DNA from: Paraspadella gotoi
Lineage: Eukaryota; Animalia; Chaetognatha
Assembly: GCA_051294375.1 (NCBI GenBank)
Contig: CM119266.1
Span: forward strand, 3,352,030 to 3,416,029
Length of the DNA: 64,000 nt
Direction: 5' to 3'
The position numbers were made by a program, and so were the translations under genes. The number at the start of each line of letters is the position of its first letter. Within the stretch, counting starts at the first letter, position 1. The notes under the pieces were generated by a model that worked only from the letters and a program-made list of their open reading frames with translations, ran no database searches and had not been told where the DNA came from. Positions 9,368 through 61,600 of this stretch are shown here, piece by piece.

Positions 9368-12300
9368 TTAAAAATCTTGGCTCCATTCCGTGGCGGCTTT
9401 ATAGGATGGAGGTCCGTCTTCTTCCAAACCGTATTCCATATATCTTCTGTACGACGGGACCGGAGAAGCAAGTTGTCCTAAAATCAAAAAGAGCAATTGC
9501 ATATGTGAAATTATTTATACTTAATTAAAACAAAAGATGTTTGTGTGCTTCTCGAAATGAAGCTCACCTAATTTCGTGACTTGAGCTTCTTTCGGTTCCT
9601 CCCGATTTCTCTCGTTCCTTTCGCTAATTTCCACCCAATATTCCGACTGCTGGTTCTGTCCAGGCTCGACCAAATTGTTGTTGTTACCGGCGTGGTTGCC
9701 ATGGTGAGAAGGGCGGTAATTAACCTGCGGGCCGTTCCCAACCCTCTTCCGTCCTGCCTCGGGCGTTCGGGCGGATGGCCGCACACTCTTGGAACCCCTA
9801 GGAGTCCGCGGGCTTCGGAGCCTTTGATTAATAGCGTCTTGCGCGCCCTGAGCGCTTCGCTGCGGCGTGGCCGGGGCTTGGGGAATATGCCGCCCCTGTC
9901 GGGGAGTCGAAGGCAGCTGCGGTTGGGTCAGGTTTCGCGGCGGCTGCACGGACGACCGCGTCGGCTGAGGAATCTTCGACGGAGAGTTAAGATGCCGCGG
10001 CTGAGAATTCGGCGGCGGAATACGAGAAGTTCGCGGAATACGGGGCTGCGGCGGCGCTGCTGACCGCGGCTGCTGCTGAAGCGGAGCCGCCGACCATTGC
10101 TTCTGCTGCTGGAGAGGTTGCCCATACGATTGCGGCGCCACGTAAACGGGAACGGCTTCGTTGGAATGATAACTGGAAGAGGGACGAGATCTTTTGGTGA
10201 AGGTCGCGTCACGGCGAAGTGTGACGCCCTCTGGATTTACGGTGACATCTCCGTGATTGGTCAAAGGGACGGAATTCGTGGCGAACTGATTGGCGACAGT
10301 CGCTGAGGATTCGGTGGTATTATTGCTTGGAAGGACGGAGACTGCGCCTGATTGATAATACGCATGATTATGAGAGATGTGATTGGCCGAGCAGTTGGCG
10401 GAGTTGTGATTGATGGAAACAACTCCAGCCCGATCGACCGATGATTGGCTGGCGGAGACGGCAGCGCGTTCGGCGACGGCGTTGAGGTCTTCGGCCAACG
10501 CGTCCGCGGCCGACGAGTAGTTGGCCTCCAGCATCGCCGAATGGCGCGACGCCACATCCCTGGAAGACCTTGTCAACTGACGAGTCGACGACGACAGTCT
10601 CTGTAACAGACTAGGGTTCGACGAGTATTGAATCTTGAGTCGCTGCAGCTGCTCCATCGTGTCGTGACGGGTGACTGGAGGCGTGCCGAGGTAGACCGGG
10701 GAGAGATAGTCCGGGATGGAGAATGTGGAGGCGGTGAGGCCTTTCGATCGATGCTTCAACAGGCTCTCTCTCGATTCGGTCTTCAAGGCGTCGCGTTGAC
10801 GAGGTGCTGGATCCGGTTTGGCTTCCCGTTGGAGACTGACGTCGGAGGCGGCGATTTCCACGGTCGGTTTGACGTCGGTGGCGTCTTCCAAGTCGGATTC
10901 GCGAAGAGCAGCGGCGAAGGCGGGCGAGGCGGAGAATCCTGGAGTAGAAGCGAAAGTCGGCGACTCTTCGTAGAGGACGGGACGTCTAGCGGGAGATCTG
11001 GTCGGCGTTGGCGGTTTCCATGCCGGCGGCGGGGACGCCCATTGCGCCGCGGAATTTCTAAGGGCGCCTTGATCGCCGGAAACGGCATCGATGCTGGCTC
11101 CATTGGGCGAAGGGACGCCGTCGAAGCTGGGATCAGCGTGAGGACTGACGCGAATGACGTCACGAATCGGCGTCCGCGGATTTGATCGTCGGGAAGTGGA
11201 AGGCGTCGTCGGGGGGCGTTGCGGATGCAGGACGGGATGGTTGGGCGCCGCGGGGTTGTAAGTGGTGGTGGATATGAAAGCGCCGTGGGGGGTGTAGGGT
11301 CGAGGGGGTGGAGCCTCGGCCGGTGTGTAGGGGCGTGGCTGTGAAGCGAAGGAAGTGTCGGTCGTGATGGGAGTGCGGCGCGAAGAGTCCGAGACTAGAA
11401 TCAGAATGGATAGAATTTGTATTTATTTTTGAATAATTTGACATTTTTAGTTTATAACTTCACCTTTTGAGAGGAAAGAAAGTTAAACATATATGGACAA
11501 CGAATCCCAGCGTTACCGAAAAGAACGACTGATATAGTGATAGACAAGGAGTTTATTCCCTTCCCAAAATAAAAATTTTGTTTCAAAGTCAAAATCCCCT
11601 TCAATTTGCCAGAAAATTAAGTTTGCGTTATTATTGTAAAAAGAATTAAAGAGAAGTAAACTTACAGTTAATTTACGTTAAAGTAAAAGTAAAAGTAAAG
11701 TCAATCCAGCCTGAAATTAAAGGTTAAATGTTAAATGTTAATTAATAATTTAGATATTTCTCTTTGAACTGTTACTATTGTAAGAGTGATGGAGGCCTTA
11801 AACCACCAAAGCCTGTCCAAAGTCAGGGGCAAGATAGCTTATTTATTAAATGAATGGATAATTTTTATATTAGTTGTACCAATTTCATTCAAAGTTGGAA
11901 TTCGGTTTCCTATTTTCGACATCGATCGCCCCCCCCCCGCCCCCTCCCACCCCCCGGGGGCTTGGGGAATTATAGAAGGCAGGAGAGGTCTTTCTTAAAA
12001 AAGCTGGAAAGGGGAGAATCGCTCTTGGGCAACTTCCAGATTTTCACCCTTCTTCTCTCTTAACCATTTCTCGATGATATTTCAACGTGAGTCATCCACG
12101 ATGGTTTTCGTCGGTTTAAAATACGTGAAAAAAAATTTTGTTTACTCGATTGTGAACACGTGATGGGATTCGAGCCTCTTATGAAATTACAGTCATTTTT
12201 TTTTTCTTCACGTTACGCACACATCACACCCTCGCTATCTCGCTTCGTATCTTAACCAAAAACCATCTTTGCTTACTCAATACTCAATACTCTTCCTCAC

Positions 12301-58600: not shown

Positions 58601-61600
58601 CTCTGGGCGACGACCCACTTCGCGTCGACAGCGTCAAGATGTTGAAGATGGAGACGACGGAGCGGGCGGAGGAGGTCGTCTTTGATCTGGAGATCTCGTA
58701 TAAAGGAGATGCGCAGGTGAGGGAAGGAGGGCGGGTGCTCAAACAATCAATCAATTATTAAAGAAGATTAATGAAAAAATCTGAATGATTGATACGATAA
58801 CGAATTATTGATGTAATAGTAATTGATTATTGATGCAATAATAATGAATTATTAATGCGATGATAACCAATTATTTATATGATGATAACCAATTATTTAC
58901 GCAATTATAACCAATTATTGATGCGATGATAACCAATTATTGATGTGATGATAGTCATTCATTGACGTGAAAAAATAAATAAATAAAAAAATAAATAAAA
59001 AAATAAATAAATTAAAAAATAAAATCAAAACACCACTAATTGCAGTTACCATTTAATCAAACAATCAATCATTTTTTCAATAAATCAATTATAACAAAGC
59101 TGTTACCCATATCAATCACCCCCCCCCCAAATTAAGGTCAAAGTTGACCTTGTCTACATCGCCGTCCCGATGCGAGTCGGCATCAAGAATCTCTCCTTCA
59201 ACGGGAAACTCCGGGTGGAGATGCAGAACTTTTGCGGACAGGTGCCGATCGTGGGCTCCATCTGCTGCTTCTTCCTCAACGACCCCGTCGTCGACTTCGA
59301 TCTGACGAACATCGCCGACTTCATGGACGTGCCTGTCTTGAAGACGAAGATGATGGGGCTCATCAAGGGAACCATCGCCTACATGATGGTGCTGCCCAAC
59401 AGGTTTGATGATCAATATATTAATCAGATGAGGAGCTCGATCATTCATCCAATGAATCCGTTAGTCGTAGGGCGTTGAAAATAACGAAATATAACAATCA
59501 AGTGAGGTACATAGCTATTTTAGTGTAATAAAGTCTGTAGAATTCGATGATGATGACCATTTTTTGTATAGTCTCATCTTCTTGTCGGAAATGGCGATTT
59601 TTGTAGCATAAGGTACTATTAAAATGGAGAAAACATTGTAGAGTATAAGAAACTCAATTGATAAGATTTTATAAAAGCCATATTTAACTTACATAATATG
59701 AAAATAAAGACCATATAAATATTTTGGTAAGTTTATTTACAAATTTTATATTTTATTAATAGTTTGTTAGCTATATTATTAATAAATAATAATAAAAAAT
59801 AAGCTAAAGTGAAAAAATAAAAAAATTAAAATTTAAAAACCGGATTTGAATTCCTTACAAAAAGTTGATATAAGAAAGTATAATCTATTTTAAATAATTC
59901 TTTCATTAAGTAAGTTAAAAATTTTAAAAAACTATTATTTTTGTTTACTTTTTCAATTTTGGTTTAAAATTATAGTTTTTCTAAATTTTGACCACATTAT
60001 GACATAATTTGATATAAAAATTATATTTTCTTATATCAACTTTTTGCAAAAAATGCAAATCCATGAAGAAAATTTTGAAATTATTATTTTTTAACTTACC
60101 TAATTTTTACTCATAATTATTAATAAATATAGTTAACTAACTTTTTATAAAACATAAAATTTAGAAATAAACTTACCAAAATATTTTATAATCTTTATTT
60201 TTATATTTTCAAAAGCTCATATAATTTTATAAAATTTTAATAATTTGATTTATCATAACTTATAATGGTTTTGTATTTTATAACAATTTTATATACATTA
60301 AAAAACCGTCATTTCGGACAAGAAAGATAAAATTATAAAAAAATGGTCATCACCATCAATTCTACAGACTACATTACACTAAAATAGCTATGTACCTCAC
60401 TTGATTTGTTATATTTTGTTATTTTTCAACGCTCTAGTAGTCGGCATAGCAAAGTTCACCCCGCCTCTTAGCATGAATCCTTCAGTCGTGACCCGGTGGC
60501 TCATTGAGTAAAGCCATCAGCTCATGACCACTAGGTACCGGGTTCAATCCCAACCCGGTACCTACTTTGCGGGAAGTGTGAGGACGGCCGTAAGCCGCCT
60601 TGGGGGCGTGGAAAACCCTCAAGCCTGGTTCCAAGCCCAGGACCCGTTCGATAGCTGCTAGAGGGGTTATAGAAGTTACGGAAAGTCATCTTCAGCCCAC
60701 TTAGCGCCTTATCCACAATTCAATCAATCGAATTCGTCAATCAATGAGTCAAAAAATAAATCTCTCTATGAATCTCTTAATCAATCAACATCTTAATCAA
60801 ATCAATCTCTTAACCAATCAATCAATTAATTACGAAAATAATTTCTTAATAAATCTTGTAGACTAACTAGTGACTGGAAATCTATTCTTCTAAAGAAAAA
60901 ACATAATAATTAAACAATTCAAATAATTAATAAATAATTAAACAATTCACTCAGATATCCTGTCCCCCTGATGAACGACGTGGACACCAACCTCCTGCGC
61001 AACCCGCTTCCCAAAGGCATCCTCCGCCTTCACCTCATCGACGCCGTCAACTTGAAGTTTCTTGTCAAGGCGGACCTTACGTGGCGGCCAAAGTGGGCGA
61101 CAGAAGAAAACGAGCACCAGAATGAGGTGGTTTTGGGAGGGGGTGAAGAGGGGGTAGGGGCTGTGATTGGGGGTTGTTTAAAGGGATTTGTTTGGGGTTG
61201 TGGAGGAGTTTGTTGTGGGGATTGTGTTTGTAGAGCAGATTATGCTGGGCGGTTGTGGTTGCGATAGCTTAAAGATTTGTTTAAGGGTTCGTGGTGTGGG
61301 TTGATTTAAGGATTTTGGTGAAGACTTTTTAAGATCGTGGCTAAGACAAGGTTTGATTTACGGATTTGGAGATTTAGATTTTGAGTGAGTTAAAAAGGTT
61401 TTCTCACATTGCCTGTCTGTATGTCTGTCAAAATAACGAGAAAGATTCCTCTCTCAGGACAACGAGGATCCAGTGTGGAATCAAATCCTGGAATTCGTGA
61501 TTTGGTCTTCGGAACAACAACTCGAAGTCTCCTTGATGGACGGGGACACCATGTTCGCCGACGCTGACGACCCGCTGGGGCATTACGAGATCAAGGTTGA

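Follow-up and report, generated by a model that had tools for sequence, protein, structure and literature searches.

What kind of mobile RNA carries the same rearranged ribozyme core in three otherwise dissimilar non-coding elements, and how is it copied? The question is raised by a stretch of 64,000 nt from the chaetognath Paraspadella gotoi (GenBank assembly GCA_051294375.1, contig CM119266.1, positions 3,352,030 to 3,416,029, forward strand), hereafter the window, in which elements A (11778, plus strand), B (53722, minus strand) and C (60569, plus strand) hold a permuted twister register. Our preferred reading, to which we give a probability of about 0.55, is that A, B and C are non-autonomous passengers of a Naiad-type reverse transcriptase (RT), carrying a type P5 twister with a bulged P2 helix whose predicted U-A cut would proceed best in dimers paired through a hexamer. 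Coordinates are those of the window.

Three elements with a type P5 twister register

The register AA-N4-GA-T1'-N6-UAA-N3-T2-[P3]-P4-U-T1-AA-T2'-P4'-P5 is present in A, B and C. In each, U-A-A stands at L1 and GA precedes T1', and the pairings T1 (3 bp) and T2 (2 bp) are Watson-Crick throughout, with both sides changing between elements (n = 3, too few for a formal covariation test). G-C and U-A pairs of P4 close L4 in A and C, and in B the G-C is replaced by A-U. P2 consists of 3 bp and one bulged base rather than 4 bp, and the bulge lies at the equivalent position in all three (11785, 53713 and 60577). A P1 stem closed by a loop is absent throughout; the 6-nt spacer in its place allows a hairpin of at most 1 bp. 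The cores are located as follows.

11778..11888 (+): element A, 5'-truncated single copy, with twister at 11778-11833, AT-rich tail and fixed 3' end at 11888
11793..11798 (+): element A hexamer AGGCCT, standing where P1 would be; cut predicted at 11799/11800
53648..53722 (-): element B twister, hexamer GGCGCA at 53705-53700; predicted cut 53699/53698
60569..60647 (+): element C twister, palindrome CGGCCG at 60585-60590; predicted cut 60591/60592

A preliminary description of this DNA had recognised a P5-permuted twister; that reading stands, and its T1, T2, first P2 pair, P4 and cut positions agree with ours. It had counted copies at both 28660 and 53722 on the minus strand. The register is found at 53722, whereas 28660 misses our descriptor by one indel and is the same locus duplicated, so there are three independent elements and not four copies of three families. 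The term repeat family is borne out for A and C, which recur in short-read contigs, but not for B, seen at a single locus in the window. Its remark that there is almost no P1 overlooked that the N6 spacer is palindromic; it likewise missed the tandem array, the tRNA-like heads and the fixed 3' ends described below.

The descriptor, derived from the three copies themselves, admitted any spacer of 4-30 nt and a P2 of 3 or 4 bp. It matched the window three times, every time with a spacer of 6 and a bulged P2. Over 300 local order-2 shuffled windows it matched three times in total, never more than once per window, and the combination of spacer 6 with bulged P2 occurred in 0 of the 300. Because the descriptor was built from the three copies, this shows a fit beyond chance and not activity. 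A looser early scan gave one additional AT-rich match in the window and 0-2 per shuffle over 12 shuffles. The twister parts align pairwise across A, B and C, with scores reached by 15, 1 and 0 of 1000 shuffles.

The Rfam comparison that had been proposed as a check placed Twister-P5 (RF02684, gathering score 37.6 bits) as the best match for A, at 25.8 bits (E 0.001 for a 201-nt sequence), and for C, at 16.3 bits (E 0.4), below the cut-off in both cases; B had no twister match, and at gathering level there were 0 Rfam matches across the window. The Rfam Twister-P5 alignment fills 0/14 P1 loop positions. With the type P5 twister (PMC5408937; RF02684) the three elements have in common the strand order, the U-A-A cut site, GA, the 3-bp T1, the 2-bp T2, P4/L4, the optional P3 and the ending in P5. 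They differ from it in having a self-complementary hexamer for the P1 hairpin, a three-pair bulged P2, an A-U closing pair at L4 in B, and scores below the cut-off. We consider it highly probable that A, B and C carry a twister-class fold, and probable that this fold is catalytically active in some copies.

A sequence-only model recovered the known copies alone (10 matches). Pattern scans gave no relatives: in viral contigs 0/13 matches had T1 pairing and 0/10 had the 3' half, and the count was 0 among the 118 matches listed in 117 metagenome loci (flanks for 80 loci) and 0/1 in prokaryote genomes. These collections hold few eukaryotes, so the null result is no evidence of rarity. One metagenome contig (L038:362-539) has two repeat copies of ~150 bp with palindromes like those of repetitive extragenic palindromic (REP) sequences; it is not a twister.

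A self-complementary hexamer in place of P1

The N6 spacer reads AGGCCU in A, GGCGCA in B and CGGCCG in C, that is, two perfect palindromes (A and C) and one with a 4-bp core (B), for which the naive chance is 5e-5. Permutations of the same composition pair as well in 3/180 cases for A, 9/60 for B and 7/20 for C. When the hexamers self-pair, the inner pair is swapped between G-C and C-G across elements, with A-U, C-G or G.A on the outside. If the same six letters are to serve as both strands of P1, one strand from each unit, a palindrome is required.

The hexamer self-duplexes have energies of -9.1 (A), -7.9 (B) and -10.7 kcal/mol (C). By nearest-neighbour energy, which leaves out both pseudoknots, the swapped dimer beats two monomers by 13.1 (A), 10.1 (B) and 16.3 kcal/mol (C). 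A monomer P1 of 1 bp costs energy in A and C and is impossible in B. The free two-strand fold is the swapped dimer for C and partly so for A. We hold at slightly better than even odds that hexamer pairing between two units is needed, or strongly helpful, for cutting.

The same device occurs in another ribozyme class. In Penelope-like hammerheads and a newt satellite, a palindrome substitutes for the hairpin and two tandem copies complete the helix, which there is hammerhead stem III and not twister P1 (PMC6765202). Amphibian hammerhead retrozymes need dimers formed via a palindromic loop (PMC7229834; bioRxiv 10.64898/2026.07.22.740005).

Element A is a tandem repeat with a fixed 3' end

Besides the single copy at 11778, the following traces of element A were found.

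33467..34538 (+): tandem array, ~3.3 units of 310-330 bp, 38% GC
near 33470-33516, 33802-33855, 34129-34179 and 34439-34490 (+): array twister copies, indel-damaged
22425..22460: empty site for the array (at 22443), an AT-rich stretch in which a target-site duplication was not seen
47623..47660: the other empty site (at 47641), in a duplicate segment
9077..9141 (+): tail fragment, 5'-truncated, with the same 3' end as the other A copies
22016..22060 (+): decayed tail fragment sharing the A 3' end, duplicated at 33046-33079 and around 47225
36766..36881 (+): the 11778 copy in duplicate, with many errors; it starts close to an assembly gap

The array measures 1.07 kb, holds a twister in every unit and occupies 1/3 duplicate segments. 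All four independent insertions (9077, 11778, 22016 and the array) share one 3'-terminal base, which lies 89 nt beyond the predicted cut, and begin at different 5' positions. P5 is short at 11778 because that copy is 5'-truncated; in array units it has ~8 bp.

Short-read contigs were compared for four runs among the 12 listed; these come from 3 studies, and one may be the source of the assembly. Contigs fitting one A unit (2729, 9158, 2469 and 588; 4 runs) have majority letters that restore the twister register at three indels of a damaged array unit, and in 3/4 runs they continue from one unit into the next. Both A and C are high-copy in these data, contig depth not being taken as copy number.

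Element A shows the defining anatomy of non-LTR (long terminal repeat) retrozymes: tandem units within 150-450 bp, low GC, no coding capacity and one ribozyme each. The array has no hammerhead core and has a twister instead, so that A resembles a non-LTR retrozyme with the twister replacing the hammerhead. Its unit folds no better than shuffles (z -0.75, on an error-rich copy). Metazoan non-LTR retrozymes share with A tandem units of ~320 bp, GC below 45%, one ribozyme per unit and the absence of an open reading frame (ORF); those described are all of hammerhead type I, whereas A has a twister, and a Penelope origin has been proposed for them (PMC7229834; bioRxiv 10.64898/2026.07.22.740005). 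The word 'twister' occurs once in the main text of the former paper and 0 times in that of the latter.

Elements B and C join tRNA-like heads to the twister

Directly 5' of the twister, B and C each have a stretch in tRNA register.

53725..53796 (-): head of element B, an eroded tRNA that keeps the exact 72-nt register, with anticodon CCC (Gly) and a B-box-like motif at 53735-53745
53635..53808 (-): predicted outer stem of element B, 8 bp, in which 53808-53801 pairs to 53642-53635 around both head and twister
28587..28733 (-): B locus in duplicate, comprising head and twister; the 3' strand of its P2 has an indel
60445..60717 (+): element C, dispersed repeat of ~270 nt with fixed ends, in an intron of an SMP/C2-domain gene
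60490..60561 (+): head of element C, an eroded tRNA that keeps the exact 72-nt register, with anticodon CAT (Met) and a B-box-like motif at 60541-60551
62657..62768 (-): second C copy, 5'-truncated, 86% identical, beginning in the P3 loop, same 3' end

The boxes were sought with the A/B box consensus. In 2/2 heads the B-box-like anchor puts the anticodon loop at 32-38; the stems are eroded, and neither ARAGORN nor Rfam calls either head a tRNA. The outer stem of B has z -3.66 (0/200 shuffles). The leader and tail of C can pair, but do not do so in the whole-element fold. No further B copy was found in the window.

Short-read contigs fitting C (870, 6388, 2551 and 503; 4 runs) bridge the tRNA head and the twister, and their flanks vary beyond about 60445 and 60717. 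Seven variable positions are listed for the C twister: the bulge, three in the P3 loop, two that preserve pairing and one that breaks P2 (0.2-4% of depth). At the bulge the window has T, whereas C accounts for 69-86% of depth and A for 8-15%. Among these listed variants none falls in GA, T1, the hexamer, UAA, T2 or L4, a count that has no neutral control.

No target-site duplication was seen by eye at C. An early reading of C as a solo LTR (TG...CA ends) was dropped, since the 3' end extends past CA and no duplication was seen. A tail motif common to A and B by eye was also rejected, as 726/1000 shuffles do as well. The ~45-nt leader of C has a second A-box-like motif (by eye only), and the P4/L4 of its twister (60627-60637) itself fits the B-box-like pattern, probably by coincidence. 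An AT-rich self-inverted repeat of ~970 bp (59468-60436, 76% identity), also intronic and possibly a foldback element or miniature inverted-repeat transposable element (MITE), abuts the 5' end of C.

The SINE-like (short interspersed element) hammerhead repeats of Schistosoma are known as Sm-alpha and are of tRNA origin. Like B and C they have an RNA polymerase III (Pol III) type head and a ribozyme cutting 3' of the promoter (PMC6765202); B and C differ in having a twister, and C in being mostly dispersed with fixed ends. The twister T-variants of Schistosoma Perere-3/RTE likewise put a weak-P1 twister in a retrotransposon, but these are type P1, lie at the 5' end of a LINE (long interspersed element) and have P1 completed by the target site (PMC8501958; PMC7761336), whereas those of A, B and C are type P5, internal and self-complementary in P1.

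Relation to Penelope and Naiad elements

Naiads encode RT and endonuclease, unlike the non-coding A, B and C. We read by eye 30 of the 54 published Naiad 3' ends (450-600 nt, File S5 of PMC8557442; names by file order). A P5 twister layout with palindromic P1 is present in 5/30; motif searches of the same supplement had missed these twisters, and reading the 3' ends revealed them. They have in common with A, B and C the P5 permutation, the palindromic P1 region and the place shortly before the 3' end. The mussel elements Naiad_Mgal, Naiad_Bpla and Naiad_Mphi have the same 3-nt/4-nt bulged P2 together with T2 AC/GU, and two of them have P4 CCUG/CAGG, like A; in the clam elements Naiad_Scon and Naiad_Mmer P2 has 4 bp. 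Where the mussel Naiads carry the twister, the oyster-type Naiad_CGi, Naiad_Sglo and Naiad_Olur have a different conserved GC-rich motif.

Naiads are reported to show no canonical hammerhead, heavy 5' truncation and partial tandems (PMC8557442). For a Penelope-like element, RT is reported to start 111-118 nt into the ORF; as the hammerhead there cuts at +26, the start lies 85-92 nt beyond the cleavage site. Insertion is into AT-rich DNA (PMC11167929). Element A has the traits expected of Penelope dependence from these two papers: 5' truncation, a fixed 3' end past the ribozyme, tandems and an AT-rich target. By this analogy, mobilisation of A, B and C by Penelope-type machinery is fairly likely.

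A decayed minimal type I hammerhead lies at 62795-62865 (-), just upstream of the truncated C copy. It has CUGAUGA, a 4-bp stem II and GAAA, lacks stem III, resembles the hammerheads of Penelope pseudo-LTRs and matches Rfam HH9 at 15.2 bits (E 0.27). It hints that canonical Penelope-like elements are present here too.

Proposed mechanism

Element A lies head to tail and C is dispersed, and copies of both stop at a constant 3' position beyond the twister and are shortened from the 5' side. We propose that within a tandem transcript the hexamers of neighbouring units, n and n+1, would pair, building a P1-closed twister in which the P5 'loop' is the whole repeat unit. Multimers would thus be cut to unit length, and a lone linear or circular unit would be cut slowly. 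A host ligase might close unit RNAs into circles, as happens with hammerhead retrozymes, and RT would proceed from an internal start, ~90 nt beyond the cut in A and ~125 nt beyond it in C, with insertion into AT-rich DNA. B and C may have arisen in SINE fashion, by fusion of a tRNA-derived Pol III head to a twister-bearing 3' end; if lone units are cut slowly, this would account for the survival, in C copies, of a head that lies 5' of the cut. More tentatively, A, B and C could represent a natural twister subclass that acts as a copy-number switch, its P1 forming only between two units so that lone linear or circular ones escape cutting, and driving the first twister-based animal retrozyme and tRNA-headed SINEs mobilised by Naiads.

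Alternative explanations

Several points weigh against the preferred reading. Canonical twisters have a P2 of 4 bp, a length suggested to matter, and the G-C pair at L4, for which B has A-U, is 'essentially invariant' (PMC5408937). Tandem copies of B or C were not seen, and the tails of A, B and C fail to align with one another. Twisters are lacking in 25/30 of the Naiad ends, and the Naiad P1 region is longer, with mostly two self-complementary stretches against one hexamer in A, B and C. No RT or GIY-YIG frame was found among the 123 of 158 filtered window frames scanned, so the link to Penelope is drawn from anatomy. The free two-strand fold of B ignores the hexamer, the pseudoknots are missing from the energies that favour dimers, and the three hexamers are not independent draws if the twisters have a common ancestor.

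The role given to P1 meets a further difficulty, for P1 is dispensable in known twisters and monomers may therefore cut well. P1-less twisters cut at near wild-type rate (PMC5408937), and in a screen of natural type P1 twisters flaws in P1 and P2 were tolerated, those in P1 without lower cleavage (PMC11662667). A, B and C could then be natural mini-twisters active as monomers, still non-autonomous retroelements, with the hexamer a mere tether or minor dimer helper, as the dispersal of C with varied flanks would also allow. We regard this as unlikely, though it is the best of the alternatives: palindromy is preserved across different sequences in 3/3 elements and in the Naiad ends, a fast cut would sever the tRNA head of B and C, yet contigs join head and twister, and the published P1-less constructs have a free 5' end and not a 6-nt tether.

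The preliminary description had favoured a lineage-wide subtype exchanged as a module, that is, a free-standing twister moving among unrelated mobile RNAs, whatever the mobilising enzyme. The twisters align across A, B and C where the tails do not, and the heads derive from different tRNAs. However, the twister is placed alike, shortly before the fixed 3' end, in A, C and the Naiads, and the equivalent bulged P2 in Naiad_Mgal, Naiad_Bpla and Naiad_Mphi makes 'lineage-wide' too narrow and is no lineage invention. Bulged P2 and 3'-end position in the mussel Naiads imply that the twister likely travels within a Penelope-type 3' end; two tRNA heads and one headless unit fit takeover of such an end more simply than modular exchange, which we think improbable.

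Slightly less probable still is that the fold has been retained for RT, which would bind it or use it as a priming signal, with self-cleavage weak, protein-assisted or vestigial. The anole Penelope hammerhead cut only with its protein and was dispensable for in vitro insertion (PMC11167929), a result that also counts against the preferred reading; 8/9 frog retrozyme dimers were uncut in vitro, and C retains its heads. Against this, A, B and C all retain an undamaged catalytic G, U-A-A and pair of pseudoknots, and in C no variants are listed there. A chance match or assembly artefact, suggested by the indel-rich assembly with redundant segments and by the Rfam scores, is very improbable and is refuted for A and C, the register occurring in 0/300 shuffles and both elements in short-read contigs of 4/4 runs from 3 studies, where majority letters restore it.

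Novelty and significance

The literature search found no title or abstract describing a natural twister that is dimeric or has a palindromic P1, a retrozyme built on a twister, or a twister SINE with a tRNA head, in a body of work from which subscription papers were mostly absent; the text and supplements of Roth 2014 and Lunse 2017 may bear on novelty. What appears new is the non-autonomous twister carriers and the one-hexamer P1 with swapped pairs. If the preferred reading is true, the twister gains a defined job in eukaryotic mobile RNA, and two unrelated ribozyme classes have converged on the palindrome-dimer device. It makes testable what takes the place of the hammerhead in Naiads and whether Penelope-type transposition needs a ribozyme, for which three natural variants of 55-80 nt with swapped palindromes are ready constructs. 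High-copy ribozyme repeats that escape Rfam and hammerhead-only retrozyme screens are flagged, and a ribozyme that cuts multimers and spares circles is suggested, which would be useful for circular RNA production.

Duplicated segments and other features of the window

The host DNA is eukaryotic and intron-containing, with BTB and BACK domains near 3.4-4.9 kb and SMP and C2 domains near 58.5-63.6 kb. The segment 11787-30701 is repeated at 36766-55694, and 19884-24194 at 30727-36317; gap openings exceed mismatches in 5/6 of the duplicate segment pairs tested. The two B copies, 28660 and 53722, sit in one ~25-kb duplicated segment (21245-30701 = 46497-55694), and the duplicates around B differ mostly by indels (46 gap opens and 27 mismatches over 1.6 kb). 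Thus 11787-55694 comprises two to three near-identical segments with mainly indel differences, from a redundant long-read assembly or very recent duplication.

A 633-amino-acid open frame at 9521-11422 (-) is rich in Pro, Gln and Ser, and intronless frames of 128, 124 and 583 amino acids at 15470-18337 (+) are hydrophobic; none has a Pfam match. A 22-bp minisatellite of ~50 copies occupies 234-1349, with a related remnant at 58756-58984.

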